Shown here piece by piece: positions 12,375 to 29,895 of a stretch of 64,000 nt of DNA. Where the stretch lies: contig CAXXVS010000001.1 of the NCBI GenBank assembly GCA_963674755.2, forward strand, positions 512,001-576,000, given 5' to 3'. Position numbers and translations under genes: made by a program. Position 1 is the first letter of the stretch; the number at the start of each line of letters is the position of its first letter. This stretch comes from Desulfobacterales bacterium (lineage in GTDB: Bacteria; Desulfobacterota; Desulfobacteria; Desulfobacterales; UBA5852). A model generated the notes under the pieces. That model saw nothing but the letters and a program-made list of their open reading frames with translations. It ran no database searches and had not been told where the DNA came from.

Positions 12375-12696
12375 GGTGTGCCTCCTTTGGTTCGGGTGTT
12401 GAGGGTGGGAGGGCCTCTATATCTTTCGGTGCCGGTTTGGGGTTTCCCGTTTTCGCGATGGAAACGAGATCGGAATGATGCGCAGGGGCAGATGGGGTTT
12501 CAGATCAACAGCGGCGTGGCGGTGCGGGGTAAAGCAGCAAACGGCCAAGTCAGTTGGCGGTCGTTATGGGCGGTAGCCGATAGAAAGGCCCGGATGAGAT
12601 GGTTTCCCAAAACGTCCTTAGCGGGGAACGGACGTCTTGTCAAGAAAATGACGATCGCTGGAGAGGGGCGTCGGAAGGCCGATTCGACCGGGCGGC

Positions 12697-12873
12697 TTAG
12701 CGGGATCCGGCGTAGATCTGCTGCCGTCTCTGGAAGCGGTCCCGGCCCAGGGATTTGCGGACGCCCACCACGAAGTGCGATCGTTCTTCATTCAGCGTGG
12801 CGCGGGGGCTCCCGTCGGCGATGATCCGAACGCCCCGGTCCTCGGGGGTATACGTTGCCGTGTGGGCGCTCAC
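12697..12873 (-). CDS. Small 58-aa protein coupled to the ECF sigma gene (possible anti-sigma remnant)
   Basis: GTG start overlaps the sigma TGA stop (GTGA) with AAGGAGG 7 nt upstream; reads MSAHTATYTPEDRGVRIIADGSPRATLNEERSHFVVGVRKSLGRDRFQRRQQIYAGSR; not listed in the ORF track. Confidence 0.4.
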   Translation of the reverse strand: MSAHTATYTPEDRGVRIIADGSPRATLNEERSHFVVGVRKSLGRDRFQRRQQIYAGSR

Positions 12874-13487
12874 GGTTGGACCTCCTTGATATAGGCACGA
12901 AACGCCTGGTCGTTCTTGAATTTTCCCAAGGCCCGATACAAGTGTGTTTTGACCGTGCTTTCACTTTTGTGGAGGACCTCCGCAATTTCCTTTAGGCCGA
13001 GATCGTCCAGAAATCGCAATAAAAAGACTTCCTTCTCCATTTTGGAGAGTCGCGTCAGCATGGTCTCCACCTTTTGCCAGAACTCTTTGCGAACGATGGC
13101 ATCCATGGTGTCGCTTTCCCGCTCCGCCGGGGGATCCGCTTCGCTTTCGCCGTCCGTGTCGTGCAGGACACTGAACAGGGATCTGAATTTCTGGCGACGG
13201 TGGTGGTCGTTCACGCGGTTGACCGCGATCCGGAACAGCCAACTGGCGAAGCGCTCCGGTTCCTTGAGCTTCTTCAGGCTCCGGTAGGCCTGGAGGAACA
13301 CATCCTGGCAGATATCTTCAGCATCTTCCCGCGAGCGGGTGCGGTAAAAAATCATGCGAAAAACCCTGGGTTCCAGCTGCGTCACCAATTGCTGAAAGGC
13401 AAAGCGATTGCCGTCGCGGGCCTCCGCGGCAAGCCGGCTGACATCGGGATCGTGATCTGGGGGCTGGGCTGATGGGGTTTCGGCCAT
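12870..13487 (-). CDS. ECF-family RNA polymerase sigma factor
   Basis: Region 2 (DAEDICQDVFLQAY, FASWLFRIAVN) and region 4 (GLKEIAEVLHKSESTVKTHLYRA). Confidence 0.93.
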   Translation of the reverse strand: MAETPSAQPPDHDPDVSRLAAEARDGNRFAFQQLVTQLEPRVFRMIFYRTRSREDAEDICQDVFLQAYRSLKKLKEPERFASWLFRIAVNRVNDHHRRQKFRSLFSVLHDTDGESEADPPAERESDTMDAIVRKEFWQKVETMLTRLSKMEKEVFLLRFLDDLGLKEIAEVLHKSESTVKTHLYRALGKFKNDQAFRAYIKEVQP

Positions 13488-13603
13488 GGTGCATCTTAAC
13501 CGTTCCGATCAAACCTGTCCACAAGCGGGCGGCTTGCCGCAGTCTCGCCGCCTGGCTGCCGGCCGCTGCCATCGCCCGGCAGCGGTCGGCGTCCGAAGGG
13601 GCA

Positions 13604-13972
13604 TCAACGCCGCGCGAAGGCGTGGTGACCGCGACGGCAGGCCCGGGGCGGTTCCATCCGGTGCTGGTTGTGTTTATAGCGGTCGATCTGGTCGCTGGCG
13701 CGCGCCAAGTAGACCAGCAGGATGCGCCCTTCCTTGTGGGATAAATGTCCATCGGCCATGGCGTAACGGGTCATCTGGCGCAGCTTGCGCTGGTCCTGAT
13801 AAAGCGTTTCCGCTTCCCGGGGGGTAATCTGGCCACGGGCAATGCCTTGCCGGATCCGTTGCGCCTGCTGCTGCTGACGATCCGAAAAATAATCGGCGCT
13901 GGCGGTTGATACCATTCCCAAAACGGCGGTCAACAGGATGGCGGTGATGACGATGGTGGCTTTCGTTTTCAT
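13604..13972 (-). CDS. Exported helical protein of unknown function, upstream of the ECF sigma gene
   Basis: Signal peptide ending ASA-D; Q/R-rich helices with RIRQGIARGQITPRE and ADGHLSHKE motifs; AAGGAG SD. Confidence 0.7.
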   Translation of the reverse strand: MKTKATIVITAILLTAVLGMVSTASADYFSDRQQQQAQRIRQGIARGQITPREAETLYQDQRKLRQMTRYAMADGHLSHKEGRILLVYLARASDQIDRYKHNQHRMEPPRACRRGHHAFARR

Positions 13973-14073: not shown

Positions 14074-14101
14074 AGGGGCGGTCCCGTCGGGAACCGCCCC
14101 T
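14074..14101 (-). terminator. Rho-independent terminator of the PKS-PPTase-ligase operon
   Basis: Minus strand AGGGGCGGT-tcccgacggg-ACCGCCCCT followed by TCATTTTT. Confidence 0.65.
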
Positions 14102-14217: not shown

Positions 14218-16011
14218 CTAGTCCTCCGGATACATGGTATCGATTTCCGCGGCGAAGCGTCGGGCGATGACCTTGCGGCGGATTTTCTGGGTCGGTGTGA
14301 CTTCCCCCTCCTCTTGGGAAAACTCCCGGGGCAGCAAGGTAAAGGCTTTGATGGTTTCGAAACCGGCCAGTTCGCCGGATTGCTGATCGATGCGCTCCCG
14401 AAAGAAGCGGATGATGTCCGGATGTTTAACCAGTTCTTCCCGGGATCGGAAAGGAATGCCCTTTTCCCGGGCCAGCGTTTCGACGACCTCGAAGGAAGGC
14501 ACGATCAAGGCGCTGACGTATTTGCGGCGGTCGCCGATGGTGGCGATCTGTTCGATATAGTGGTCTTTGCCCACCGCGGTTTCGATGTGCTGGGGCGCAA
14601 TATTTTTCCCGCCCGAGGTGATGATCAGATCCTTGATGCGATCGGTGATGACCAAAAAGCCGTCGCCGTCGATCCGGCCTACATCGCCGGTGCGAAACCA
14701 GCCGTCGTCAAAAGCCGCGGCGGTGGCCTCCGGGTTGTTGTAGTAACCCAGCATGACGTTGGGACCCTTAACCTGGACTTCGTCGTTGGGCCCGATGCGG
14801 ACCCGGCAGCCCGGGACCGGCCGGCCGACCGTACCGAATTTGAAGTGCGGGGGGGTGTTGTAGCTGATCATGGGGGCAGTTTCCGTCAGACCGTAGCCCT
14901 GACAGACCAGCAGGCCCACATCCAGAAAGAAATCTTCGATCTCCTTGGCCAGGGGCGCACCTCCGGCCGAGAAGAAATTTTTATCGCCGCCCACGATGGC
15001 GCGGATCTTGCGCAGCACCAGCCGGTCGGCCAGCCGGTACTTGAAGGCTAGAATGCCTCCGGGCTTTCGATCGGCGCGCCGGGCATCCGCCCGCTGCCGA
15101 CCGATGGCAATCGCCCAGCTAAACAGATGCCGGCGCAGTGGGGGCGCCTTCTCAAGGCGGTCCATGATGGCGGCATGGACTTTTTCATAAAGGCGCGGCA
15201 CGCTGACCATGACGGTCGGTTGGACCTCGCCTAACGCCTGGAGGACCTCGCGGGGGTTTCTAATATAGTGGTTCTGGGCGCCCTGGTGGAAAACGAGATA
15301 GGACCAGCTGCGCTCATAGACATGGCTGAGGGGCAGAAAGCATAGGGAACGGTCCTCCGGGCGCACCTGGAAATGGGCATTCACGGCATCGATCTGGTGG
15401 AAGAAGCTCCCGTGGCTGAGCATCACCCCCTTGGGGTCGCCCGTGGTGCCGGAGGTATAGATGATGCTGGCCAGATGTCGGGACGTGTCGCAGGCCGGCC
15501 GTTCGGCGGGCAGGGTTTCATCCCGGGATGAGGGCGATGACGCCAGCAGGTCGCTGAAGGTTTGGGTGCGGTCCCCGTCTGCCGAAGGGGTGTCCGCTGC
15601 GTCGAAGCGGATGATATGGTCCAGCGGACCGTGGCGGTCGGCGAAAGAAGTTATTTTGGCGTACTGGGTTCCATCGCCCACAAAAAGGACCTTTATGCCG
15701 GCGTCGCGTACGATATATTCGGCCTGGCCGGCCGTATTGGTGGCATAAATCGGCACGGTAACAGCATCCACCGTCAGGATCCCGAAATCGGCGATGGCCC
15801 ATTCCGCGCAGTTCTGGGAAAAGATGCCCACCCGGTCCCCGGCCCTGACGCCCATGGCGGTGAGGGCCGCTGCGATGCGCCGGATCCGCTGGCCGAGTTC
15901 CCCATAGGTGATGGCCTGCCAGGCACCATTCGATTTATAGCGCATGGCCACCCGGTCGGCATGGCGGCGGCAGCTTTGGGCGATCATATCGGCGAGATGG
16001 CGCTGTTCCAT
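14218..16011 (-). CDS. Long-chain fatty acid--CoA ligase (AMP-dependent synthetase)
   Basis: IIYTSGTTGDPKG, QGYGLTET, FRTGD, DRIKDLIITSGGKNIAP and TPTQKIRR motifs (FadD15/LACS-type). Confidence 0.92.
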   Translation of the reverse strand: MEQRHLADMIAQSCRRHADRVAMRYKSNGAWQAITYGELGQRIRRIAAALTAMGVRAGDRVGIFSQNCAEWAIADFGILTVDAVTVPIYATNTAGQAEYIVRDAGIKVLFVGDGTQYAKITSFADRHGPLDHIIRFDAADTPSADGDRTQTFSDLLASSPSSRDETLPAERPACDTSRHLASIIYTSGTTGDPKGVMLSHGSFFHQIDAVNAHFQVRPEDRSLCFLPLSHVYERSWSYLVFHQGAQNHYIRNPREVLQALGEVQPTVMVSVPRLYEKVHAAIMDRLEKAPPLRRHLFSWAIAIGRQRADARRADRKPGGILAFKYRLADRLVLRKIRAIVGGDKNFFSAGGAPLAKEIEDFFLDVGLLVCQGYGLTETAPMISYNTPPHFKFGTVGRPVPGCRVRIGPNDEVQVKGPNVMLGYYNNPEATAAAFDDGWFRTGDVGRIDGDGFLVITDRIKDLIITSGGKNIAPQHIETAVGKDHYIEQIATIGDRRKYVSALIVPSFEVVETLAREKGIPFRSREELVKHPDIIRFFRERIDQQSGELAGFETIKAFTLLPREFSQEEGEVTPTQKIRRKVIARRFAAEIDTMYPED

Positions 16012-16168
16012 GGCCAGTGTCCCCCTGTCGGTGAAAGCTTTTGTAAAGCGTGTCTGTCTTGCAGCCAAAGCCATACCACAGGCCGGGCGGCAGTCCAACA
16101 TCAATTTAAGTGAATACTATACGGTATGGCGGGCCGTCCGATAGACGGATGAAGGCGGCGTGCCGCGG

Positions 16169-16954
16169 TCAGGACACCATGGCGAAGGCGTAACCGGGAA
16201 AAAGCAGATGGGTGGCGAGGGAAAGGGAGGGAACGGGACACCCATCGTGGAAAATGGTGTCGTCCAGGATTTCCACCCGTTTGAGGCTTTCGTGGAACCC
16301 CAGACCGATATACTTGAGGTAGGCTTCCTTGGCGGTCCAAGACCGAAAGAGGGTGGCATCGTCCCGGGATTCGAGGGCTTGGACCTCCCGGGCGCTGAAA
16401 GCGGTGCGCAGGAGCGTTGACCGGTTCTCCGGTCGAATCTGTTCCAGATCCACCCCCAGGAGGCAGGCGGGCGCGAGCCCCATCCCGGCCACGGCAAAGT
16501 TCCCGGAGTGTGAAATGGAAAGACACAGGGCGGGGTCATCGCTGAAATAGGGGGCGCCTTTTTGCCGGTAGGCCACCCGGGTGTGGTCGAGGGGGGGGCG
16601 ATGTGGCCGGAAGTGTGCCGCCAGTTGCTTGGCCGCATAGCGCCCGGCGATCCATTCCACCTGTTTTTTGAGGGCTTTGAAACCATTCAGGAGGATCAAT
16701 TCATCCGACCCCAGGAAACACTCATGGAAATCCTGCGGTACAAAAACGCGCGGCGGCGCCGTGCGAAAGGCGCTTCCGACGGCAACCTTCAAAACGTTGT
16801 GCAATAAAGCGGGGATCGATACGAAGGCCAGGCGGTAACCCGGGCCGGGTCGTCGAAAACTGAGTACGGCGTCAGGTTCCGGCCCTTGGCTAAGGGGGGG
16901 GATGGGTGCGGTCATATGGGTATTCGACATGACCGACGACCGGCCGAGACACAT
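16169..16954 (-). CDS. 4'-phosphopantetheinyl transferase (Sfp-like)
   Basis: KGAPYF, SISHSG, GVDLEQ and WTAKEAYLK motifs; directly downstream of the PKS; start uncertain (16915-16954). Confidence 0.9.
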   Translation of the reverse strand: MCLGRSSVMSNTHMTAPIPPLSQGPEPDAVLSFRRPGPGYRLAFVSIPALLHNVLKVAVGSAFRTAPPRVFVPQDFHECFLGSDELILLNGFKALKKQVEWIAGRYAAKQLAAHFRPHRPPLDHTRVAYRQKGAPYFSDDPALCLSISHSGNFAVAGMGLAPACLLGVDLEQIRPENRSTLLRTAFSAREVQALESRDDATLFRSWTAKEAYLKYIGLGFHESLKRVEILDDTIFHDGCPVPSLSLATHLLFPGYAFAMVS

Positions 16955-16984
16955 GCTCCGACCGGCCGTCGGCCTTCTATCCTT

Positions 16985-19900
16985 TTATGAGGCGCGCCGG
17001 GCGCTGCCGGTTTGCAGGGCATGCAATATCTGATCTTCCCCGGCCAGCCGGTCCACCTGGACCATCTGGAAGTCGTCGATGGCCATGTGCAGGCGGCCCG
17101 CTTCATCCACCAGACGAAGCTGGTAGGTATTGGTTTCCTCGCCCTGGTCGGTCTTTTCGGTGATGCACAGATAGGGCCTGCCCTTGGCGAGGGGCCGGTA
17201 GAAGCGCATGCGGCCGATGGCGTATGGCAGAACGATGATATTGGTGGTCATGACCTCGAGCATGCCGCCGGTCTGGAACATGGCATCCACCACGGCCACA
17301 TCGGTCAGAAAATCCGGCTGGGGGCAATCCGCAAAGAAAGGCTTCGTGCTGCGATTGACGATGCGGGAGATCAGCCGTTGGGGTTCGAAAGAGACAATGT
17401 CCTCCACCGTCCGGAAAAGGCCGTCCATGAACAGGCGCGACGGGTGGTAGAGCAGTTCCTGGATGTCACCGGCATAGTCCACGGGCCGAAACGGCGGCAG
17501 CGTGACCTGTTCGGAGGGCAGCGGCGTCGGTCCGAACCGGTAGGCGCCCTGGTAGTGCAGGGTGGGTTCGCCCATGGCGATGCCTTTGGGGTTGCGGAAC
17601 TGGGAACGGATGCGGCAGTCGAAGACCTCGTCATCCTTCTCTGATCGAACGGCTTCCACCAGGATTTCCTTGGGGCGTCCCTTGAGGATCTTAATGCCGT
17701 AGGGGATTTTGAAATCCCGCACTTCCTGTAGGGCGGCCTGCGGCGGGACCAGGGTGGCGGCCGCCTCGGCCATGGCTTCAATGCCGGTGGCGCCTAGGAA
17801 AATCGGGATGTCCTCCCGGCTGTGATCCAGCAGGAAAAGGTCCCGCTGGAGATCCAGAATGCGGCGGTAGATCCGGCTGTCCGCCGTTTGTTCCACAAGG
17901 CGATCGAGGAAGGGCGCCTGGGGGCCGGCCGGGGCAGCATCCTCGGGCGCTAAAAGACCGTCGGTGTCAAAGGCGCGGTCGATGCCGGAGAACACCACTT
18001 CGGAAGTGTTTGTGTCCCCCAGTTCTTGCATGAAATGCGCCACACCGTCTTCCAGGGGCAGGAAGGTCAGCCCCCGCTGCTTGAGGACCTTATTGACGGT
18101 TTCGTTGGTGGCCATGCCGGCGCCCTCCCAGGCGGTCCAATCGAAAATCTTGACCATCGTGTCGGGGTGGAGCGCTTGATAGTGCTGCAGCATTTTTCCG
18201 ATGGTGTCGTTGGCGGCCGTGTAATCCACCTGCCCCTCGTTGCCCAAGCGGGCGGTGACCGACGAAAAGGCCATGAGGTAACGCAGGGGATTTCCTTCCA
18301 GGGCTTTCAGGAGATTATGCAGACCGCGAACCTTGGTGTCGAACACCCGATCAAAGGAGGCCATGGTCTTCTTGGTGATGAACTGGCTTTCTTCGATGCC
18401 CGCGGCATGCAGCACGCCGTCCATTTTCCCGGTCCTTGCCAGGACCGCGTGAACGCTCGCGGCATCGGTGACATCCACGGCATGGTAGGTCACTCCGGCC
18501 CCCGAAGCGCGCAGGGTTTCAAGGTTGCGCAGGGAGGCCCGCAGGTTGAGCGTCCGGTTGAGGGCCTGTTTGACGGCCAGCGGCTTGGCCTCCGGCATCC
18601 GGGTTTTCAGCCGGGCCATGAGGGCCGGGAGGTCCAATGCCGGGTCGGCCAGGTCGGCATCCAGGTCGTCGAGGTTGCTGCGGCCCAGGATCACCAGCTT
18701 CACTTTGACGGCGGCAGTCAGCGCTTTCAGAATTTCAAAAGTGATGCCCCGTGCGCCTCCGGTAACGAGGAAGGTATCGCCCTCGCGAACGAAGCGCTTC
18801 CCCGTGTGCGGTGCCTGGGGGGTGAGCTGCAGGACCCATTTATTGCCGTTGGCGTACCCGCATTCCACCCGCGGATCGCCGGAGAGCAGTTCATCGAGCA
18901 GCGTTGTGACAATGGTCTCCGGAGCCTGCCGGAATTCGCTTTCAGCCAAATCCACGACCTTGACCCGGGTGTCCTTAAGTTCTTTGTTGACCGTCTTCAG
19001 CATGCCGGCCAGGCCGGCCATGAGCGGATCGATGGCCGCGCTGGTTTTCCGGTACGGGAATACGGTCGAGTGCACCGTCGGTACGGCGATAAAGGTCCCC
19101 GGGCGATCGAGCTGGTCATAGAGCCCCCGGATCAGGACGAAGAAGGCTTTCAGACTGCCGGCGATCCGCTGGGGCGCCAGGCGATCGGCCGTGCCGTAGG
19201 TTTCCAGGGGGAGCAGATGGATCACGCCGTCGATGCGTTGGCCGCTATCCAGCAGATGGCCGGGCAGGGCGGAAACCTTTTGGCGATCCTGCCAGTCGCA
19301 GGGGAATTCGACACTGTCGCCTGATCCCACAAGCACGGCATGTCCGCCCCGGGCCGTAATGTGCTCCGCCATCACGGCGGCCAGCTGGCTGCCGCCGGTC
19401 GTGATCAGGACCCGTTGCCCTGTCATTTTATCCGCCGGCCTGCTCGATTCATTGGCAGCCGGCACCGCTTCGATCACCAGACGCTTGACTGCGCTGTCCA
19501 GCGGCACGGCCGCGACAGGTCCGCGAGCGGCGGGTTCGGCCGCCGCCGGCGTCTCGGTTGTGGCTTGGGCTTCAGGGGAACCAGGGAGTTGTTTAGCGAG
19601 ATAATCGCTCAATTTGGCGATGGTGTTAAGATCGCGCAGTTTGAGGTCTTCGGGGACCTCGATGCCGAAGCGCTCGGATACCTTTCCGAAGATTTCCACC
19701 TGTTTGACGGTGTCGATGCCCAGATCGGCTTCCAGGTCGAGGCCGTCTTCGAGCATGTCGGTGGTATAGCCGGTCTGCTCGGCGACGATGGCCTTGACCG
19801 TGGCCTGGACATCACCATCGGCGGATTGCATTTCGACGGCCGGGGTCTGGGGCGCTGTAGCGGCGTTGCCCACCGGTACCTTTTGGGCCAGATAATCGCC

Positions 19901-22900
19901 CAGTTTGGCGATGGTGTTGAGATCGCGCAGTTTGAGGTCTTCGGGGACCTCGAGACCGAAGCGCTCGGAGAGTTTGCCGAAGATTTCCACCTGTTTGACG
20001 GTGTCGATGCCCAGATCGGCTTCCAGGTCGAGCGCGTCTTCGAGCATGTCGGTAGTGTAGCCGGTCTGCTCGGCGACGATGGTCTTGACTGTGGCCTGGA
20101 CGTCGGTGACGGCCGGTGTTTCCGTCGCCGGGGCTTGTTGCTGGGTAGCGGCCGTGCTTTGACCGGGCATTTTTGGGGTCAGATAGTCGCCCAGTTTGGC
20201 GATGGTGTTGAGGTCGCGCAGTTTGAGGTCTTCGGGGACATCGAGGCCGAAGCGCTCGGAGAGTTTGCCGAAGATTTCCACTTGCTTGACGGTGTCGATG
20301 CCCAGATCGGCTTCCAGGTCGAGGCCGTCTTCGAGCATGTCGGTGGTGTAGCCGGTCTGCTCGGCAATGATGGCCTTGACCGCGTCCAACATATTCCCGT
20401 CAGCGGCGACTGGCGCCGGTGCCGCCGCCGGCAATTGGTTCTCGGAAAGCGGTTTGGCCTCTGCCGCAGCGACCGGTTGGGACTTGGGCGGCGTGTCGGT
20501 GACCGGCGAAATGACGGTCGGGTCGATACACAGGGTGTTGTTGATGGTCGTCAGGCGGGGCCGTTTGAGGCCACTGATCTTTTGTAGCCAGGCCTGGTAG
20601 CGCGGATTGTCGGCGGCCCGGTTCTCTTCGATACGGCGGATCATGAGAAAAGCGAAGTGGGATCCGAATCCGGCGGCATAGTGCAGACCGAACTCGAAGG
20701 GCCCCTTGGACGCGTCCCGGCTGAAACGCAGGTCCCGGAACTCCTCCGGAATGTTGCTGAGGTTGGCGATGGGCGGCACCTGGTTGTGCTGAAGGGCCTT
20801 GACCATGACGGCGTCTTCGATGGCGGCGCCCAAAGTATGCCCGGTATAGCCTTTGGTATTGGTGATGGTGATGTCGCGGTAGTGTTCCGGAAAGGTCTTC
20901 TTGAGGGAGGCCACCTCGGCCGAGGCGCTTCCGCCCCGGGCAGGGGTGAAGGTCTCGTGGGACATGAAGACCATCTTGCGGGTGTAGTCGCGGCGATCGA
21001 GATCGTGACGGTGTTCCACCCGGCGCACGAAGCCTTCCATCTCCTCGGTCAGATGGCCGAGGTCGATCTGGGTGGCGTGATAGGCGCTGTTGCCGATATA
21101 GGTGCCCAGGATTTCGGCCTGACCGTTCAAGCCCCGCTCCCGGACCTGGTCTTCGCGTTCCACGATGAGGGAAACGGCGCCGGCGCCTAAAATGGTGCCG
21201 TTGCGGTCGGCGTCAAAGGGTTTGGCGGCCTCGGCCACCACGTTTTTGATGCTGGCGGCTCCGAGGGCCAGAAAGCCGGAAGCGATCCACGGACTTTGGG
21301 TTTCCGAGGTGGAGGCCTCGCCGCCGATCACGACGACCCGGTCGCAGCGTCCGGTGCGGATCCAGTCCTCGGCCACTCCGACGGCCTGGGTGGTGGAGGC
21401 ACAGGCGCCGCTCATGAGCATGTTGGGCCCCTTGGCTTTGATCAGCTGGGCGAAGTGGGCCGATCCCAGAGGCACCACATCGAAGAGCAGGTTGCGCTCG
21501 AACTGGTAGGTGCCGTATTTCTTGCGGCGCTCCTTGATTTTGAAAAACCAGTCGGTGATCTGTTCCTTGATGTCCGCGTCCCGCACGGATTCCATCAGAT
21601 GGTAGTAGATGTTCTCCAGCTCCTTGTAGGGCCGCACGTAGAACTTGTTGTAGTAGTATTTGTTGAGTTGCTCGATCAGGGTTTCAAACCCCGGAAAGAG
21701 AGAGGTCATGATGACGCCCGTGCGCCCCTGGAGCTCCCGCGGCAGGGCATAGCCGGCCGGAATCTGCTGCCCGGTGGAGGTTTGCTTGTGCTGCAGAACC
21801 AGGGGGATATGGGCGTCTTTGAGGGCCTCGATGCCGGCGGCGATGGCCAGGGAGATCGTGATGTCGTAGTCATAGTCCACGCCGTACTCGTTTTTCAGAT
21901 TGAAATAGCCGAGTTTGCCGGCTAGCTGGATCACGTCCTGGGTGTCGGTGATCTTGAGAAAGCGGGCATTGCCGTCGGGCTGCTTGAACACCCGGGTGAT
22001 ATTCATGTCGACAATTTTCTCCTTCTCCTGGGCGGAGAGCGGCTCGATAAAATTGTTGCCGCTGAGAAGCTTGTCGAAGTTGTTGGAATTGAAGACTTTG
22101 TTGCCGGTGCCCGGCAGTCCGATGGCGGTTCCGGCCACGACGGTCTTGCCCGTATAGAAGTTGAAGCGCTCCACCTCCTTGAGGGCCTGCTCCCGCTTCT
22201 GCTTCAGAAACTCCTGGTAGAGTACGCCCCGCAGGGCCTCTTCATTCTTCTGAAGAAAGGCTTCGAAGTCCGGGGCTTCCGCCAGGGCGGGTGGGCTGAC
22301 AACCTCCTCCGGCAGGTGGTCCGGGGAGGCCTGTGACGCCGCTTCGGCGGCATCTGTTCTTGCGATCAAGCCTTCTGCTGCCAGATGTGCTTTGAATTCC
22401 GCGAACGATTTGGTTTCACCGGCCTTGGCATCCACCGACGGCCGGGCATGGTAGTCTTCGATGCGGATATTCTTCAGTAGGTTGACCAGAATGCGGCCAG
22501 CGCCGATTTCGTAAAACCGAGCGTGGCCGGACTGGCGCACCCGCTCCACCGAGCGGATGAATTCCACCGGCGAGACGATCTGGCGCACCAGCAGGGCTTT
22601 GATCTCCTCGGTCTCTTCCGGATAGGGCGCAGCCGTCACGTTGGAGATAATCCGGCTGGTGTCCACCGGCCGGAAGGTGACGTCCCGCAGGTAGGCGGCC
22701 ATGCTGTCCGCCGCGCTTTGGAAGAGCGGCGTGTGGAAGGCGCCGGAAAGGGCCAGGGCCTTGAACATGACCTTGACTTCCTTGAGGTAGCCTCCGAAGG
22801 CTTCGATGGCCTCCTGGGCGCCCGAGACGGCGGTCTGGTTGTCGCTGTTCTTGTTGGCCACATAGATGTTGCGGATGCGGGAGGCCCGGATCAGCTGGTG

Positions 22901-25900
22901 GACGCGGTCGGCATTCTTGAAGACCACCATGATGCGGCCCGGCTGAACCTCGGTGGCCGCCTTCATGAAGTCGGCCCGTTTGACGATCAGCTGCATGGCG
23001 GCTTCGAAATTCAGCAGGCCGGCGCAGTACAGGGCGGTGTATTCGCCCACGCTGTGGCCGATAAAGCGGTCCGGTGCAAAGCCCCGGGCGGCCAGATCCG
23101 TATAGATGGCCGCCGAGCTCAAAAAGACCGCCGGCTGGGTGTTTTCGGTCAGGTTCAAACGGGCATCTTTGCCGAACATGATATCCAGCAGGCTGTAGCC
23201 GCGCATCTCCTGGAAGATCCGGTTGCCCTGGTCCAGGGTGGCCCGGATGGAGCGGTTTTCATGGTAGAGATCCTGCAGCATGCCGCCATACTGGGCCCCC
23301 TGGCCGGACACAAGCGCCACCACGCCGTTAGGTTTCGTGGGGATGGCGGCTGCGGGGCGGCGTGTCACCGCCGCGGTGGCTGTTACGGCCGGTTGGACGT
23401 CCGTTTGCAGCCAGGGCGGCAGGGTGCCGACTACGGTGTGGCCGTGGTTGCCGCCCACCCCGTTGACATTGGCGGCGAAGTAGAGGGTCTGCCGATTTTC
23501 CGGCTGTCGCAGGCGGGCGTTGGGCGCGAGACATGAATCGGAGCCCACAATGGCGGTATCGGGTGCGTAGCTGAAGTTGGGCAGCAGGGTTTGGGCACGG
23601 TTCATGAGGAGCAGCTTGGCAAGGGCGACGGCCGGGTTGGCGGATTTGAAATAGCCGAACTCCGGCTTGATGTTGCCGAAATAGACCGGCCGGTCAAAGG
23701 TGCGCTCGATGGCCTGCTTCTCCATCTGATCAAGCAGGCTGTTGGCCACGCCGAAGACGTCCAGGTGATCGATCTGGCGGGTGTTGACCGGCAGGCGGCG
23801 ATAGCTGTCCCGGATGGTGTCCCGATAGACTTTTTCGGACGGGGCCAGAAGATGGTCCGGCACGGAAGAACGGAAGGCGCTGTGGAGGAACTCGCCGATC
23901 ACAGGCATGCGGTGCTTTTTGGCATGGCCGTAGGTGGTCATGACCAGCAGGGCCGCGCCTTCGCTCATAACATAGCCCTTGGCCTGCTTGTCGAAGAAAC
24001 GGCAGTCTCCGTCGGACAGCAGGCTCAGGCGTTTGAAGGCCAGCATCACGGTGGGGTAGAAATTGGCGTCCACTCCGCCGGTTAGCACGCTGTCGAACTC
24101 CCCGCTGCGCAGGCCCATGGCCGCCAGCCGGGTGGCCACGGTGGCCGACGCACAGGAGGCGTCCACCACGAAATTGGCCCCGTTACAGCCGAAGGTGTTG
24201 GCAATGCGTCCGGAAACGATGTTGGACAGCAGACCGGGGATCGTGTCCTCGTTATTTTCAGGAATGCGGTCCCGGATTTGCTCCCCCAGACGGGCGGCGA
24301 TGGCTTTTTTGGTTTTCTCCGCGGTGCCTGCCAGGCGGTTGATGATGCCTTCGATCATCCCCAGGCGGACCCGCAGGATGTTCTGCACCTGGCGCTCCCC
24401 CGGCAGGGTCCCCAGCACCACCCCCACCCGGTTGCCGTGGGCCAGCTGGGATTCCAGGGTGGCGGCGTCGATGGCCTGCCGGGCGGCATCCAGGGCGAAG
24501 AGCTGGGCCCGGTCCAGGGAACGGGCCGTGGCCGGCGGGATGCGGAATTGCACGTTGTTGAAGCGGTAGTCCTTCACCACCCCGGCTTTGACGAGGGGGA
24601 TGTGGTAGCTGGCGTCGGCCGGCTCGGCGGCATAGGCGCTGTTATGAAAGCGTTCTTCCGGGATGGTGGACAGCACCGATCGGCCTTCGGTCAGGTTGTG
24701 CCAGAAGGTATCCACGTCCGGCGATTCCGGCAGTACGACGCCCATACCGGCAAAAACGATGCGGTCGTCGTTGAAGTCGTAGTCCAGGTCGGCAAAGATG
24801 CGGCGCGGCCGGCAGGTGTGTTCGGGAGTGTGCTCGGCCACCACGCAGTGGTAGTTGATGCCGCCGAAGCCGTAGGAGCTCACGGCCGCCATGCGCGGGC
24901 GGCCGGCGTCGGCCTCCCACTCCCGGGCCTCCTCGATGATATAGAGCGGGGTGTCCCTAAGGCTGTGGGCCGGGGCCAGCGTTTCGAAGCGGCCGTTGGG
25001 GGGCAGGGTGTGATGGTTGATGGCCAGAATGGCCTTGATCATGCCGGCATAGCCGGCGCCGCCCAGCAGATGGCCGATCTGGGATTTGATGGAGCTGATG
25101 CCGATGGGGTGCTCGCTCCGGTAGATTTTCTTGAGCGTTTCGATTTCGGCCTGGTCGCCGGCGATGGTCGATGTCCCATGGGCTTCGATATACCCGATGT
25201 CGGAAACCGTCACCGGATCGCGCATGTCCGCAAAGCAGCGTTCCAGCGCCAAGGCTTGCCCGTCGGGGTTGGGGGCGGCGATGGCTTTGCCTTTGCCGTC
25301 CGAGCTGGATCCGATGCCTTTCACCACGGCATAAATCTTGTCTCCGTCCCGCAGGGCGTCTTTCAAGCGTTTGAGGACCACCACGCCGGCGCCTTCCCCC
25401 AGGACGAACCCGTCGGCCCGGGTATCGAAGGGGTAGGAACCTTTGGCCGAAAGGGCTCCCATCTTGGAAAATCCCACGAAGGATTCCGGGGCCAGGTTGG
25501 TGTTGACCCCGCCGGAAATCACCAGGTCGTATTCGCCGCTGAGCAATTCCTTGACAGCACAGTCCAAGGCGGCAAAGGAAGTCGCGCAGGCTGCGTCCAC
25601 CACATAGTTGATGCCCGTGATGCCCAAATGGTGGGCGATGCGGGAGGCTTCGATATTGAGCAACTGGCCGTGCACGGGTTCGTAGTCCATCCCGTTGGCC
25701 ATGCCCTCGCGCAGGGTCGTGAGCAGCGCTTCGCGTTCGTCTTCCGCCAGGGTGTTGAATTCCTCGATCTGCTCCAGGTGATGACGTACTTCGGGATACC
25801 AGTATTTCAGGTGCAGATCGTTGCCCAGTTCGTTGCCCAGGCAGGTGGCCACAATGACGGCCGTGGAGGCCTGGTAGGCCGCATCCAGACTCAAATCCTC

Positions 25901-28300
25901 TTGCAGATAACCGGCGTCGGCCACGGCCCGGTAGGCCGCTTCCAGAACCATTTGCTGACTGCGGGAAAGGCGGGTTGCCTTGTCGGCGGTGTAGCCGTAG
26001 CGGTCGTGGTCGAAATGGAAATCCCGCACCACGCCGGCGATCTTAGTGTAGCTCTTGTCGGTGGCCTTGCGATTCTCGTCGAAATAGAGGGCCGGATCCA
26101 GACGGTCAGCCGGCATTTCACCGATGGCGTAGGCTTTGGCAATGACATTTTCCCAGAGTTGTTCCGGGCTGTCGGCCCCCGGGTAAATGCAGCCCATGCC
26201 GATTACGGCGACGTCGTCTTCAATGGCATGGCGTGGGCTGGTGAGAACTTCAAGCGCGTTGAGCTGCCGGAAGAGATCTTCCTTGCGGTGGAAGAAGGTC
26301 TTGTGGATATCTTCGATGGTGGTGCTGCAAGGGTTGAAGGCCAACCCATCCCCCACCATGAAGTTGCCCTTTTCGAATTGTTCCTTTTCATCGTAATGGA
26401 GAAAGCAGACGTCGCCGCTTGCTTTGTCAAACTTCGGGCAAAAGGCCTTGGCGCCGATCAGCAGGGATCCGATATTGTCTTTTTCAAAGGCTTTCTTGCG
26501 CTCCTCCAGGGAGAGCCCCTCCCGTATGCGCTGGTGCTCGTTTTCGATCATGCGCTGGGAGAAGGGGGTCGCCACCGTGCGGGAGGCCAACCCCACCGTG
26601 GTCCCCATGACGATGGTTTCATCCCGCTCGCAGACCACGTCCTGGTAGATTTTTTTGATGGCGCCGGTTTCGATGATTTCGCAGGAGAAAAGATAGGCCG
26701 TACCCACCTGAATGCCGATCTTGACGCCCCGGCCGGCCAAGCGGGCGGTCATGCCGGAAATGAAGTGGGGCGCCCGGTGGGTGCCGATCCCACCGGCGAA
26801 GATCATGGTTTTGTCCCCCAGCTGGCCGTCCGGCAGCGCGCTCATTTTCTCCATGGCGAGCTCCCACAGCACCAGGCTGCTCAAGGTGCCCACGTGGCCG
26901 CCGGCCTCGGCGCCTTCGAAGATAAACCGCCGGCAGCCTTTCTGCAGGGCGTTTTCGAGCATCATCAGGCTGGGGGTGTGGAGATAGGTCTTGGTTCCGG
27001 CCGCTTCCAGATCCTTCACCTGGGAGGGAATCCCCCCGGCGAAAAGGGCAAAGGGCGCGTTGTATTTCTTTACGGAATCCAGGTGGTGGCTGATGGTGGG
27101 GTTGAAGGCTTCGATGCCGATCATGCCGGCCCCGAAGCGCTCCACCTTGGCTTGGCCGGCGGCCAGCATGTCGTCGGCCAGATTGGCCGGCAGGTTGCCC
27201 AGGGCGAAAAAGGGCAGGCCGCCGGCGGCGAAGACCGCGGCGGCGAAATCGGCATTGTCGCTCACATTGGCCATGGGGCCCTGGATGATGGGGTAGCGCG
27301 TGCCGTGCTCCCGGGCCAGGGCGCTCTCCGCCCGCATGGGGTCATGGGCGTCGACGGCCTGCAGCTGTTCGCCGATATGGGTGAAGAGGCCCGTTATCAT
27401 GGCGGCCAGGGTGGCGCTGTGGCGGGCGAAGTGCCGTGCAAAGACCGCGTCCTGACCCAGGTAGAAGAGACTTTGCAGGGGCGTGTCGCTGGGCGTGCCC
27501 AGATCGGCCATGTTTGCTTCGATGTCGTGGTAGAGCAGGGCATCGGCATCTTCCCCGCCGGCCAGCTGGATTTCCCGATCCCGCAGGGTCTTGACGATGC
27601 GGGTGCCCAGCTTGGCGAAGAAATGGTAGCGGACCTGGAGGGATTGACCGATGATGGTGGCATCCTTTTCCTCCAACTGGCCGATGACATCCTTGTATAC
27701 CGGGGCCAGGGGGGCTTCTTGGGCCAGGAAGAGCTGGTTGTCCAGGACGATGCCTTCCGCGCCCATGGCGAACAGGCCGGCGGCCGTATGCCAGCCCACA
27801 CCGCCGTGGACGAATACGGGCCACTCGCCGTTGTTGAGGTACCACTGCAGCAGGACAAAGGACGAATAGCGGGAAACCTTGCCCGGTCCTTCATGGCCTT
27901 TGACGATCAGGCCGTGGGGGTCGATGCGCGTCAGCGAATCCTTCAGGTTGATGTCGGTGGTTTCGATGAAGAACCGATAATCGCGGTTGTCGAACCGGAA
28001 TCCATCCAGATCGGCGGGGGTGCGATAGGTGAAAACGATCAGGTCCAGGTTGGCGATGCTGTTGGTTTCCAGATAGTCACGCAGGGCCTGGTTATCGACG
28101 GCCAGACGCAGGCCGAAGATCAGCTCGTTTTGGGAGAGGGTTTCGACCATTTGGATGATATCGGTATTGGTGAAAAACTCCGTGTCCAGCATCGGCAGGG
28201 CGCCGGCCGTATGGAGGCTTCGGAAATAAGTGAGGTCGAATACCTTCGATGGATGATAAACCAACAGGGGCAAACGGGCACTGATACGTCTCGCGATCAT
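16985..28300 (-). CDS. Single-chain type I FAS/PKS, PUFA-synthase (Pfa)-like, 3771 aa: FabK/PfaD-like ER x2, KS, degenerate KS, AT, KS, ACP x3, KR, DH
   Basis: ER (YPIIQGPMANV, EGAEAGGHVG); KS1 DAACATS/EAHGTST/IGHLLGG; KS2 DASCAS lacking both His; AT GQGAQ/GHSVG/SGAFH; KS3 GACAST/SHETFT/TGHTLGA; 3 ACPs; KR TGGARGIT/YTAAN; DH DH...FLG/DAMFQ. Confidence 0.93.
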   Translation of the reverse strand: MIARRISARLPLLVYHPSKVFDLTYFRSLHTAGALPMLDTEFFTNTDIIQMVETLSQNELIFGLRLAVDNQALRDYLETNSIANLDLIVFTYRTPADLDGFRFDNRDYRFFIETTDINLKDSLTRIDPHGLIVKGHEGPGKVSRYSSFVLLQWYLNNGEWPVFVHGGVGWHTAAGLFAMGAEGIVLDNQLFLAQEAPLAPVYKDVIGQLEEKDATIIGQSLQVRYHFFAKLGTRIVKTLRDREIQLAGGEDADALLYHDIEANMADLGTPSDTPLQSLFYLGQDAVFARHFARHSATLAAMITGLFTHIGEQLQAVDAHDPMRAESALAREHGTRYPIIQGPMANVSDNADFAAAVFAAGGLPFFALGNLPANLADDMLAAGQAKVERFGAGMIGIEAFNPTISHHLDSVKKYNAPFALFAGGIPSQVKDLEAAGTKTYLHTPSLMMLENALQKGCRRFIFEGAEAGGHVGTLSSLVLWELAMEKMSALPDGQLGDKTMIFAGGIGTHRAPHFISGMTARLAGRGVKIGIQVGTAYLFSCEIIETGAIKKIYQDVVCERDETIVMGTTVGLASRTVATPFSQRMIENEHQRIREGLSLEERKKAFEKDNIGSLLIGAKAFCPKFDKASGDVCFLHYDEKEQFEKGNFMVGDGLAFNPCSTTIEDIHKTFFHRKEDLFRQLNALEVLTSPRHAIEDDVAVIGMGCIYPGADSPEQLWENVIAKAYAIGEMPADRLDPALYFDENRKATDKSYTKIAGVVRDFHFDHDRYGYTADKATRLSRSQQMVLEAAYRAVADAGYLQEDLSLDAAYQASTAVIVATCLGNELGNDLHLKYWYPEVRHHLEQIEEFNTLAEDEREALLTTLREGMANGMDYEPVHGQLLNIEASRIAHHLGITGINYVVDAACATSFAALDCAVKELLSGEYDLVISGGVNTNLAPESFVGFSKMGALSAKGSYPFDTRADGFVLGEGAGVVVLKRLKDALRDGDKIYAVVKGIGSSSDGKGKAIAAPNPDGQALALERCFADMRDPVTVSDIGYIEAHGTSTIAGDQAEIETLKKIYRSEHPIGISSIKSQIGHLLGGAGYAGMIKAILAINHHTLPPNGRFETLAPAHSLRDTPLYIIEEAREWEADAGRPRMAAVSSYGFGGINYHCVVAEHTPEHTCRPRRIFADLDYDFNDDRIVFAGMGVVLPESPDVDTFWHNLTEGRSVLSTIPEERFHNSAYAAEPADASYHIPLVKAGVVKDYRFNNVQFRIPPATARSLDRAQLFALDAARQAIDAATLESQLAHGNRVGVVLGTLPGERQVQNILRVRLGMIEGIINRLAGTAEKTKKAIAARLGEQIRDRIPENNEDTIPGLLSNIVSGRIANTFGCNGANFVVDASCASATVATRLAAMGLRSGEFDSVLTGGVDANFYPTVMLAFKRLSLLSDGDCRFFDKQAKGYVMSEGAALLVMTTYGHAKKHRMPVIGEFLHSAFRSSVPDHLLAPSEKVYRDTIRDSYRRLPVNTRQIDHLDVFGVANSLLDQMEKQAIERTFDRPVYFGNIKPEFGYFKSANPAVALAKLLLMNRAQTLLPNFSYAPDTAIVGSDSCLAPNARLRQPENRQTLYFAANVNGVGGNHGHTVVGTLPPWLQTDVQPAVTATAAVTRRPAAAIPTKPNGVVALVSGQGAQYGGMLQDLYHENRSIRATLDQGNRIFQEMRGYSLLDIMFGKDARLNLTENTQPAVFLSSAAIYTDLAARGFAPDRFIGHSVGEYTALYCAGLLNFEAAMQLIVKRADFMKAATEVQPGRIMVVFKNADRVHQLIRASRIRNIYVANKNSDNQTAVSGAQEAIEAFGGYLKEVKVMFKALALSGAFHTPLFQSAADSMAAYLRDVTFRPVDTSRIISNVTAAPYPEETEEIKALLVRQIVSPVEFIRSVERVRQSGHARFYEIGAGRILVNLLKNIRIEDYHARPSVDAKAGETKSFAEFKAHLAAEGLIARTDAAEAASQASPDHLPEEVVSPPALAEAPDFEAFLQKNEEALRGVLYQEFLKQKREQALKEVERFNFYTGKTVVAGTAIGLPGTGNKVFNSNNFDKLLSGNNFIEPLSAQEKEKIVDMNITRVFKQPDGNARFLKITDTQDVIQLAGKLGYFNLKNEYGVDYDYDITISLAIAAGIEALKDAHIPLVLQHKQTSTGQQIPAGYALPRELQGRTGVIMTSLFPGFETLIEQLNKYYYNKFYVRPYKELENIYYHLMESVRDADIKEQITDWFFKIKERRKKYGTYQFERNLLFDVVPLGSAHFAQLIKAKGPNMLMSGACASTTQAVGVAEDWIRTGRCDRVVVIGGEASTSETQSPWIASGFLALGAASIKNVVAEAAKPFDADRNGTILGAGAVSLIVEREDQVRERGLNGQAEILGTYIGNSAYHATQIDLGHLTEEMEGFVRRVEHRHDLDRRDYTRKMVFMSHETFTPARGGSASAEVASLKKTFPEHYRDITITNTKGYTGHTLGAAIEDAVMVKALQHNQVPPIANLSNIPEEFRDLRFSRDASKGPFEFGLHYAAGFGSHFAFLMIRRIEENRAADNPRYQAWLQKISGLKRPRLTTINNTLCIDPTVISPVTDTPPKSQPVAAAEAKPLSENQLPAAAPAPVAADGNMLDAVKAIIAEQTGYTTDMLEDGLDLEADLGIDTVKQVEIFGKLSERFGLDVPEDLKLRDLNTIAKLGDYLTPKMPGQSTAATQQQAPATETPAVTDVQATVKTIVAEQTGYTTDMLEDALDLEADLGIDTVKQVEIFGKLSERFGLEVPEDLKLRDLNTIAKLGDYLAQKVPVGNAATAPQTPAVEMQSADGDVQATVKAIVAEQTGYTTDMLEDGLDLEADLGIDTVKQVEIFGKVSERFGIEVPEDLKLRDLNTIAKLSDYLAKQLPGSPEAQATTETPAAAEPAARGPVAAVPLDSAVKRLVIEAVPAANESSRPADKMTGQRVLITTGGSQLAAVMAEHITARGGHAVLVGSGDSVEFPCDWQDRQKVSALPGHLLDSGQRIDGVIHLLPLETYGTADRLAPQRIAGSLKAFFVLIRGLYDQLDRPGTFIAVPTVHSTVFPYRKTSAAIDPLMAGLAGMLKTVNKELKDTRVKVVDLAESEFRQAPETIVTTLLDELLSGDPRVECGYANGNKWVLQLTPQAPHTGKRFVREGDTFLVTGGARGITFEILKALTAAVKVKLVILGRSNLDDLDADLADPALDLPALMARLKTRMPEAKPLAVKQALNRTLNLRASLRNLETLRASGAGVTYHAVDVTDAASVHAVLARTGKMDGVLHAAGIEESQFITKKTMASFDRVFDTKVRGLHNLLKALEGNPLRYLMAFSSVTARLGNEGQVDYTAANDTIGKMLQHYQALHPDTMVKIFDWTAWEGAGMATNETVNKVLKQRGLTFLPLEDGVAHFMQELGDTNTSEVVFSGIDRAFDTDGLLAPEDAAPAGPQAPFLDRLVEQTADSRIYRRILDLQRDLFLLDHSREDIPIFLGATGIEAMAEAAATLVPPQAALQEVRDFKIPYGIKILKGRPKEILVEAVRSEKDDEVFDCRIRSQFRNPKGIAMGEPTLHYQGAYRFGPTPLPSEQVTLPPFRPVDYAGDIQELLYHPSRLFMDGLFRTVEDIVSFEPQRLISRIVNRSTKPFFADCPQPDFLTDVAVVDAMFQTGGMLEVMTTNIIVLPYAIGRMRFYRPLAKGRPYLCITEKTDQGEETNTYQLRLVDEAGRLHMAIDDFQMVQVDRLAGEDQILHALQTGSARRAS
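19595..20390 (-). repeat. Three tandem ACP-coding repeats, 291-bp period
   Basis: Near-identical AEQTGYTTDMLED(G/A)LDLEADLGIDTVKQVEIFGK...DLKLRDLNTIAKL units; Thr codons at 20291-20293, 20000-20002 and 19709-19711. Confidence 0.95.
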
Positions 28301-28472
28301 GCGGTCTCTCCTGAATAGAGCTGTTTAGCGATGAAAACCTCCGGCGGATCACGGCATCGCCGGAAAAGGGCCTTGGTTGTTGCGGGTCCTGACCACATCG
28401 GGTAAAGCCTGCGCCAGCCGCCGGACGGCTTAAGTGACGATCGTGTGTGGTCCCGCAAAACCCATCGACACA

Positions 28473-28631: not shown

Positions 28632-29597
28632 CTATTTCAGAGGCATGTCGAATTTCAGATGGATTGCGAAATCGCCAAAATAAAGAGGGGTTACGGCCAC
28701 CGTCGCCCCGGTGCGTTCCAGGGTTTGCCGTTTGCCGCCCACCTCCAGGGTGGCCCTGATTTTCAGGTGGCGTCCCAGAAGCATGCGGGCGGCCTTGTCG
28801 GTGGCTTTGATGTAGAACGACAGTCCTGTATTGGATAGGTCGGCCATGTCGCCGCGGAAGGGTTTGCCCAGCAACGCCTTAGCCGTGTCCATCATCTGGG
28901 CCACGATGAGACCCTCGACTTTGATACGGCGGCTCTGGCGTCGCTCGAGTCCTTTGGCGGTGACGAGTTTGCCCACATCCTTCGCCTGGCAGAATTCTCG
29001 TAGTTTGGTTTCCAGGGCGGGCAGGGATTCTTTCCATTCGCCCAAATGCGTATTGTCGATCACCTGAAGCTCCGCATGAGACTGAACCGCCAGGGATGTG
29101 GTGCAGGTGGTGGTGGCGAAAAAAGTGTCCTGGCCGGCGACATCACCCGGTTCCAGGGTGGTGATGAGGCTGTCTTGGCCTTCGCGGGAAAAGTAGAGTT
29201 TCAGTTGGCCCTGCTGAATGAAAAAAAGGCGGGTATTGATATCGCCCTGCCGGTAGAGCACTTCCCCGGCATCCAGCGCCAGCGGCTGTTGGGCGAAATA
29301 GAGGGCGTTGGTCTCCTCTTCGGAGAGCCGGTCGTAAAGCGCCCTGAACCGCTCAATGTGATTCGGGTCGATGGCCCCGCTTTTCTCCGCTTCGATGATT
29401 TCGGCCGCTTTGATGATTTCGGTAAGGGCCATCTCGTCCACGGCCATCAGGCGTTCGCGCATGGCTTCGGCTTTGGGGAAATTCTTGGCCCGGGCATGCT
29501 GTGCGACCAGGTCATAGAAGCATTTGACGGCGGCCTGGGTGTCGCCGTCGCGGGCATATTGCTCGGCCTGTTCTTCCAGTCGGGCGATATCGTCCAT
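28632..29597 (-). CDS. Cyclic nucleotide-binding domain + PilZ domain protein
   Basis: cNMP region (GEVLYRQGD...LFFIQQGQL...LEPGDVAGQ) followed by PilZ motifs RRQSRR and DLSNTG. Confidence 0.8.
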   Translation of the reverse strand: MDDIARLEEQAEQYARDGDTQAAVKCFYDLVAQHARAKNFPKAEAMRERLMAVDEMALTEIIKAAEIIEAEKSGAIDPNHIERFRALYDRLSEEETNALYFAQQPLALDAGEVLYRQGDINTRLFFIQQGQLKLYFSREGQDSLITTLEPGDVAGQDTFFATTTCTTSLAVQSHAELQVIDNTHLGEWKESLPALETKLREFCQAKDVGKLVTAKGLERRQSRRIKVEGLIVAQMMDTAKALLGKPFRGDMADLSNTGLSFYIKATDKAARMLLGRHLKIRATLEVGGKRQTLERTGATVAVTPLYFGDFAIHLKFDMPLK

Positions 29598-29895
29598 GCT
29601 ACGCGTCTCCAACGCCGGAGCGGTTGGGAAGCCGAGCGGTGCGCCGGGGTAGAGCTAGTCTAGGTCGCATTGGATTCCGGCGTTGATTCCGATGGACCGG
29701 ACCACCGGCCGCCCGCTCTGCCAGCCTGTTTTGTCGCTGATCTTACAACAAATTCACTATAGACGATAAAATCCGGTTGATCAACCGGCTGTGCCGCAGG
29801 AGGCGTTGTCCGCCCAACTTTGCCCTTGCAAAAACCAGGCATTGCCACTATGAAACAGACTTTTAAGAATTACTCAAAACTAAAGTGGACAAGCC

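Follow-up and report, generated by a model that had tools for sequence, protein, structure and literature searches.

The 64,000-nucleotide stretch of Desulfobacterales DNA analysed here (contig CAXXVS010000001.1, positions 512,001 to 576,000 of the forward strand, hereafter the window, whose own numbering is used for coordinates below) encodes on its minus strand a single multidomain protein, P0001, followed by a gene for a phosphopantetheinyl transferase (PPTase). P0001 is very probably an iterative synthase that makes saturated acyl chains, a conclusion drawn from its domain content and conserved residues, which support the original prediction of an iterative, fully reducing acyl synthase made for this DNA. 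The phosphopantetheine position of all three of its acyl carrier protein (ACP) domains is occupied by threonine, and this threonine probably bears the arm, judging from the sequences compared below. Whether bulk fatty acid supply is its main job is evenly balanced. The reading as a whole, in which an iterative saturated fatty-acyl synthase working on threonine-linked carriers supplies bulk lipids where type II fatty acid synthesis (FAS II) has eroded, is put forward tentatively, at slightly less than even confidence.

Domain assignment was performed using Pfam on in-frame pieces together with residue alignment, and gave the order ER'-ER-KS1-KS2-AT-KS3-ACP3-KR-DH (ER, enoyl reductase; ER', pseudo-enoyl reductase; KS, ketosynthase; AT, acyltransferase; KR, ketoreductase; DH, dehydratase). 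The Pfam matches comprised an NMO/FabK-type barrel, two KSs, an AT, a divergent KS, three PP-binding domains, a KR, and a polyketide synthase (PKS)-type DH. Pfam matched neither a thioesterase nor a FabA-like DH (PF07977) in P0001; the PF07977 matches lie instead in a separate PfaBC on contig C2 of the genome. The single-frame layout drawn in the original prediction, including the lack of a thioesterase and of a FabA-like DH pair, was thereby borne out, and all catalytic residues named in it are present, among them the KS2 cysteine without both histidines and the complete KS3 triad. Its description of the architecture as unusual holds against the canonical Pfa synthases; the architecture alone is known, having been catalogued as Type S in 2011 (Shulse and Allen, PMC3098273). 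The features are as follows, all on the minus strand.

16985..28300: Type S megasynthase P0001, 3,771 aa, without internal stop
27341..28300: ER' (pseudo-enoyl reductase), a barrel of FabK fold over aa 1-320, with K141 in place of the catalytic His and the flavin mononucleotide (FMN) motif lost
26261..27343: ER, FabK-type FMN enoyl reductase, GPMA and EAGGH469
24821..26233: KS1, type I (Pfa-like) ketosynthase, C905/H1041/H1077
23411..24778: KS2, Cys-only KS, C1383, with F1516 and Y1550 replacing the two His
22421..23338: AT, malonyl-type (GHSVG, AFH), S1750/H1856
20621..22153: KS3, ketosynthase of FabF-like type carrying large inserts; triad C2300/H2448/H2488 conserved
20171..20398: ACP1, Thr2670 at the phosphopantetheine position
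19880..20107: ACP2, Thr2767 at the phosphopantetheine position
19589..19816: ACP3, Thr2864 at the phosphopantetheine position
17981..19423: KR, comprising a structural and a catalytic subdomain, Y3360
17021..17923: DH, PKS-type double-hotdog, H3493 and D3672
16169..16954: dedicated Sfp-type PPTase (Pfam), likely start 16915 by alignment; its clade is co-inherited with the synthase

A homologue search scored 2,002 candidates, 552 of which passed, and the residue and motif counts given for homologues refer to the best 120 of these 552. The same domain order was present in 118 of the 120, query included, and is therefore not the product of chance or assembly fusion; the domain set and invariant residues were kept across the 117-120 homologues examined per site. 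P0001 itself has the complete KS, AT, KR, DH, ER, and ACP set with intact residues that a housekeeping type I fatty acid synthase (FAS) would need. Named genera among the homologues were Desulfobacula, Desulfobacter, Desulfospira, Desulfocicer, and Desulfoluna.

Carrier threonines and the co-inherited PPTase

All three ACPs contain the motif DLGIDTVKQ, with ACC threonine codons at 20293, 20002, and 19711, a point missed by the original prediction. This threonine aligns with the serine column of AcpP and of the PfaA ACPs from the same genome (G000), and serine is treated as the sole attachment residue for phosphopantetheine. Among the 387 ACPs of the 120 Type S homologues there were 386 threonines and one serine, and in 120 proteins of Type R, a related architecture described below, 441 threonines and no serine. 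Of 150 family representatives sharing less than 50% identity, 130 contained ACP-like domains, and these 371 domains gave 342 threonines, 10 serines, 2 other residues, and 17 unreadable positions, the last belonging to truncated or decayed copies in which the whole motif is lost. GIDTVKQ is near-invariant across one to eight tandem copies in many phyla, and in some lineages an ordinary serine motif replaces it in the same frame. No report of threonine phosphopantetheinylation was found in the literature searched, which included few subscription papers.

The distribution of the PPTase was determined in a survey of 201 genomes of the order Desulfobacterales with completeness of at least 92%, in which carriers were defined by presence of the KS3 marker; carriers numbered 38 and were patchily distributed. 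A profile built from 17 neighbouring PPTases, some of whose rows come from the genomes tested, matched at E<=4e-50 in 37 of the 38 carriers, including those in which the gene is unlinked, and gave a split match in the 38th (G135). The same profile search found the clade in none of 42 non-carriers, where the best match had an E of 1.8e-21. A second, general PPTase accompanies the clade PPTase in G000, G192, and G104. In G032, a closed 2.1-Mb genome, the unlinked clade PPTase is the only PPTase, and both Type S ACPs carry serine; this one case is consistent with a private threonine pair that relaxed once the clade PPTase became a generalist. The explanation that G032 had lost the dedicated PPTase was rejected, the gene being kept. 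In the same genome pfaA and the genes for a KS with a chain-length factor (CLF) are unlinked, and no fabD, fabF, or fabZ is present (L049, L041, L045).

Reductase and ketosynthase domains and comparison with known systems

The ER domain keeps GPMA and EAGGH (H469) in 118 of 118 homologues. Its best PDB sequence matches are FabK (E 1e-22), and a fold search returned FabK at E 4e-17 with 25% identity and PfaD at E 1e-8 with 10-11% identity. The first barrel has no Pfam match and aligns to ER using hhalign (probability 90, E 1.5e-6); the position of its catalytic histidine is occupied by R, K, or Q in 103 of 118 homologues. The significance of the FMN and histidine motifs was taken from the available part of PMC13311796. 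A two-barrel model of ER' and ER built with a 20-row alignment was confident (predicted local distance difference test score, pLDDT, 86.5; predicted template modelling score, pTM, 0.89), whereas single-sequence AlphaFold gave a pLDDT of 34.8. ER' is likely a structural twin of ER that gives an intramolecular dimer. Of the two N-terminal ER-like barrels originally predicted, both are therefore real, although they are FabK-like and not PfaD-like, and the catalytic histidine is found in one only.

In a quick tree KS1 clustered with type I KSs. KS2, in which the cysteine is kept in 113 of 117 homologues and both histidines are lost, formed its own clade and was not sister to the PfaC CLF, so that its identification as a PfaC CLF orthologue is unsupported, the branches of this quick tree being long; KS2 is likely a partner of KS1 or a transacylase. 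The KS3 domains of Types S and R formed one clade with support of 100 on a long branch that joins the discrete FabF-like KSs, and the best PDB matches of KS3 are FabF. KS3 also carries its own conserved motif variant, SHETF/YT, together with its large inserts. KS3 alone was predicted to homodimerise, with a score of 0.79 against 0.00 for the best control; the runs shared no less than 85% of contacts and had pLDDT values of 82 or more. Among solved structures, 21 of 30 pairs attained the mark used, as did none of 23 single chains. Since FabF homodimers are solved, this result may reflect likeness only.

Type S was described in Shulse and Allen from Desulfobacterium (Desulforapulum) autotrophicum HRM2 (YP_002604438) as ER-KS-CLF-AT-KS-ACP3-KR with a PPTase. 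P0001 has the same single-gene order and downstream PPTase, and is orthologous over its full length to the HRM2 protein (P0071), which is 51% identical over 100% of P0001 and has the same motifs and threonine ACPs. No architectural difference was found, the ER' twin and the DH being absent from the 2011 listing in the available part of that paper. HRM2 was reported there to lack fabA and fabZ, and the synthase was proposed as the core FAS; the genome studied here, in contrast, has fabZ. The words threonine and serine do not occur in the main text of PMC3098273, which assigns no product to Type S, and no characterised Type S product was found in the literature searched. A term search of PMC13291983 found no mention of the family.

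Type R (Roseiflexus, Solibacter, Koribacter, Elusimicrobium, and Anaerolineae) shares the KS1-AT-KS3-ACPn-KR-DH core, the threonine ACPs, and a downstream PPTase with P0001, and lacks ER, ER', and KS2. Its KS3 was labelled a CLF in 2011, at odds with its conserved Cys-His-His. Comparison of 40 loci placed the full layout in metagenome-assembled genomes (MAGs) of Desulfobacterales and Spirochaetota; six Type R loci without ER and KS2 came from other phyla. The family representatives P0285, P0263, P0320, P0312, P0331, P0365, and P0381 have the ER'-ER pair on a Type R core without KS2, and may be forms that link Types R and S. Frame breaks were observed in the MAG synthase copies at L009, L010, L014, L018, L033, and L040, and may be assembly or long-read errors and not marks of pseudogenes.

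The closest characterised relative is CexF of Acetivibrio (Clostridium) thermocellus, whose knockout abolishes celluxanthenes according to the available part of PMC12144888; the word threonine does not occur in its main text. The copy compared was the metagenome locus L074, which was matched by the primer, gene order, and sizes given in PMC12144888 and is not the accession of that paper. It has the order KS1-AT-KS3-ACP3-KR-DH with an intact KS3 triad, three threonine ACPs, and a PPTase of the same clade (103 bits); it is 29% identical to P0001 from AT to DH and 38% over KS1, and CexF/CexG corresponds to the 'Type T' of Shulse. P0001 contains the core of CexF and of Types R and T, namely KS-AT-KS3-ACPn-KR-DH with threonine ACPs and a clade PPTase. 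CexF has no ER, ER', or KS2 and makes an unreduced arylpolyene, whereas P0001 has KS2 and an ER with its invariant histidine. The cex cluster contains a discrete ACP, two ketoacyl-ACP synthase III (KAS III) enzymes, a ligase, and a hydrolase, whereas no KAS III, discrete ACP, or hydrolase is found near the synthase in the present locus. Because the CexF knockout loses the pigment and the CexF ACPs are all threonine, a threonine-only member works in vivo, though a discrete serine ACP is also present.

With canonical PfaA-E, as described in the available parts of PMC12895367 and PMC13311796, P0001 shares a Pfa-type KS1, a malonyl AT, tandem ACPs, a KR, a PKS-type DH, the lack of a thioesterase, two active KSs with one inactive partner, and an FMN triosephosphate isomerase (TIM)-barrel ER acting as a dimer. 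It differs in being one chain without FabA-like DH/isomerases or PfaB, in the FabF-like character of its second active KS, and in the threonine of all three tandem ACPs, where PfaA has serine. The ER is FabK-like and not PfaD-type, TIGR02814 matching the separate pfaD of the genome, and P0001 falls below the cut-off of the PfaA model (TIGR02813, 948.5 versus 1010.1 bits). What is new against every characterised system is the combination of threonine carriers and a dedicated PPTase, the FabK pseudo-dimer, and the FabF-like second KS.

Fatty acid synthesis genes in carriers and alternative readings

In the survey, no stand-alone FabD could be found in 31 of the 38 carriers, as compared with 29 of the 163 non-carriers; FabD or FabZ was missing from 35 carriers and from 38 non-carriers. 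When only PfaA-positive genomes were considered, FabD was missing in 28 of 35 carriers and 24 of 125 others. Five carrier families formed one clade (0.999) in a marker tree of 68 rows and are thus kin and not independent; once they were collapsed, family-wide FabD loss occurred in 6 of 9 carrier lineages, against 5 of 55 families of non-carriers. The fabZ gene was missing from 11 of the 38 carriers and from 10 of the 163 non-carriers. Because six of these 10 non-carriers also lacked lpxA and yet had fabF, they are likely assembly gaps, and fabZ absence alone therefore overcounts; the remaining 15 fabZ-less genomes had lpxA and no fabF over cut-off.

The fabF, lpxA, acpP, and plsX checks were performed on 70 genomes chosen from the 201. 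The 11 carriers without fabZ and fabF retain lpxA and acpP. In inspected carriers acpP abuts rpiB (4 of 4) and lpxD abuts lpxA (3 of 4), which argues that the fabZ and fabF losses are real deletions. Two genes were uninformative as markers: AcpP was kept in 70 of 70 genomes, and plsX was found in none of the 70, carriers or not, so that the first phospholipid acylation in this order must take another route. In spirochaete carriers, no FabF-scoring open reading frame (ORF) was found in 4 of 4 genomes, whose completeness is not established. In G000 no stand-alone FabD was found, its only AT domains sitting in megasynthases, and neither a FabI or FabV motif nor a clear FabG orthologue was identified.

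Under the proposed reading, the co-inherited PPTase would arm the ACP threonines, and the AT would load malonyl on them and possibly also on AcpP in place of the missing FabD. KS3, through a dimer of two chains, and KS1, working in cis with KS2, would divide the range of chain lengths between them, in the manner of PfaA-KS and PfaC-KS-CLF in canonical Pfa synthases (available part of PMC12895367). Every cycle would be fully reduced by KR, DH, and the ER/ER' pseudo-dimer. As no thioesterase is present, release is proposed to occur by transacylation via a KS cysteine, possibly that of the Cys-only KS2, to AcpP or coenzyme A (CoA), for which non-elongating KSs provide an analogy; such a transfer would account for the retention of acpP and lpxA by carriers without fabF, fabZ, and fabD.

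Several observations weigh against this reading. In E. coli ACP, S36 is the attachment site and S36T has been used as a variant, which the E. coli PPTase is not known to modify. G000 retains FabZ, three FabH, AcpP, and a FabF located away from acpP, as well as a FabK-like protein below cut-off (259 versus 453 bits); the suggestion that the synthase replaces FAS II thus agrees with the missing FabD of this genome and the far more frequent FAS II losses of carriers, and disagrees with the FAS II genes that it keeps. Three carriers retain both FabD and FabZ, and carriers of family f41 have a stand-alone PfaA-type AT. PfaA-like genes are present in 35 of 38 carriers and in 160 of 201 genomes overall, a frequency well beyond the scattered occurrences recorded in 2011. 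FabD is also lost in five families that do not carry Type S, and the closed 3.9-Mb non-carrier G111 (family f52) has three KS matches, all canonical PfaA/PfaBC, and no FabF or FabD, so that canonical Pfa or scavenging can cover FAS II loss; a canonical Pfa synthase may be the sole fatty acid synthase of G111. No fabZ or fabF over cut-off, Type S, or PfaA was found in G066 and G200 (family f57) or in G057, all of which retain lpxA and acpP; the sole KS genes in G066 and G200 are clustered type II genes with aryl-polyene-like scores. Of 46 genomes of Anaerolineae, one class of Chloroflexota, five have Type R, and four of these also have FabF-like genes; general replacement of FAS II by Type R was rejected on this ground. 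CexF is a secondary polyene enzyme with a discrete serine ACP (CexB) in its cluster, and the backbone of the marker tree is poorly resolved.

There is a different account, rather unlikely in our judgement, in which the threonine-linked synthase makes a specialised saturated lipid (very long, branched, or head-group-linked) while FAS II erosion is covered by canonical Pfa or scavenging and is linked to the synthase by shared ancestry only. The secondary-metabolite or FAS II-coexisting nature of the CexF and Type R relatives, the prevalence of PfaA in carriers, the reliance of G111 on canonical Pfa KSs alone, the kinship of five carrier families, and the patchy presence of the synthase all fit this account. 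It is harder to reconcile with the loci compared, in which only the PPTase co-travels with the synthase and no tailoring, transport, or release genes do, or with the FabD association, which persists among PfaA-positive genomes and at the lineage level. Canonical pfa is moreover linked to oleABCD-like genes in both genomes inspected, G000 and G192, an arrangement that gives long olefins. In G000 (C2:832000-858000; L057, L058) pfaD, pfaA, and pfaBC are followed by the oleABCD-like genes, and a DisA-type diadenylate cyclase/YbbR gene lies between pfaA and pfaBC.

An improbable alternative holds that the threonine ACPs are never modified and act as spacers or docking decoys, so that the chain rides on discrete AcpP (CexB in cex) and the protein amounts to a FAS II joined into one chain, with a FabK-like ER, a FabF-like KS3, the AT for FabD, and the DH for FabZ. 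The FabF and FabK affinities, the universal presence of acpP in the genomes checked, the serine motif of CexB, and the lack of a paper on threonine phosphopantetheinylation agree with it, although the near-invariance of GIDTVKQ over so many copies and phyla, from which decayed copies drift, the co-inheritance of a dedicated PPTase where a general PPTase serves AcpP, and the switch to serine in the same frame all speak against it. The original prediction had suggested that KS3 might perform a terminal condensation or chain release. In a variant of this, KS3 would not elongate and would act once, at the end, to give a head-to-head product (a precursor of a ketone or diol) from a second chain provided by the ligase. 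This would suit the missing thioesterase, the KS3 motif variant and inserts, and the ligase gene that follows in this locus; it appears still less probable, given that the ligase is a neighbour in so few loci (see below), that no downstream reductase or decarboxylase is linked to the synthase in the loci compared, and that CexF has the same KS3, yet separate KAS III enzymes perform the terminal fusion in the published model (available part of PMC12144888).

Neighbouring genes and significance

The remaining features of the locus are also on the minus strand.

14218..16104: long-chain AMP-dependent acyl-CoA ligase family protein, likely start 16011; accessory
14074..14101: intrinsic-terminator-like hairpin 3' of the ligase, 12 pairs, 9 of them G-C, from a consensus scan only

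Domain searches confirmed that the PPTase and ligase genes downstream of the synthase are real. In loci with enough flank the ligase adjoins the synthase in only 5 of 20, as compared with 18 of 23 for the PPTase, and it is therefore regarded as accessory; its membership of the system was rejected. The consensus scan found one strong terminator-like site after the ligase, at 14101-14074.

Directly 5' of the synthase lies a gene for a protein with cyclic nucleotide (cNMP)-binding and PilZ-like domains (window 28632-29612, minus strand), which is kept in several loci of the same genus and not conserved beyond them; it is a possible regulator. A 1,346-aa open frame on the plus strand (window 24278-28318) runs antisense over the synthase and is most likely a codon-bias shadow in GC-rich DNA. 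Beside htpG, window 12378-13972 contains an extracytoplasmic function (ECF) sigma factor gene (12870-13487, minus strand), a DUF533/TerB-like gene (13604-13972, minus strand), and an unannotated ORF; synteny of this region is confined to the genus. In one rhizosphere RNA run, contigs of 0.5-3.1 kb from a relative (about 85-90% identical) covered the synthase at a depth of 22-28, while a control stretch gave pieces of less than 0.4 kb. As these contigs come from one study and were found by using this gene, they were not counted as expression evidence.

Taken across the family, it is conceivable, though held with less confidence than the reading for P0001 itself, that the multi-phylum Types R, S, and T, CexF included, bear phosphopantetheine on threonine, attached by PPTases of a dedicated clade, an orthogonal chemistry absent from the literature searched, and that Type S, whose core gained a FabK-like ER pair and an additional KS by fusion, became an independently evolved type I FAS that allowed the deletion of fabD, fabF, and fabZ in several lineages of Desulfobacterales and spirochaetes. 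If true, a natural threonine-ACP/PPTase pair would break the serine-only rule, would give engineering an orthogonal tag for carriers, and would account for failures if such synthases are expressed with generic PPTases. The survey turns the guess made in 2011 from one genome into a testable claim about the source of membranes and lipid A in sulfate reducers from which fabD, fabF, and fabZ have been deleted.

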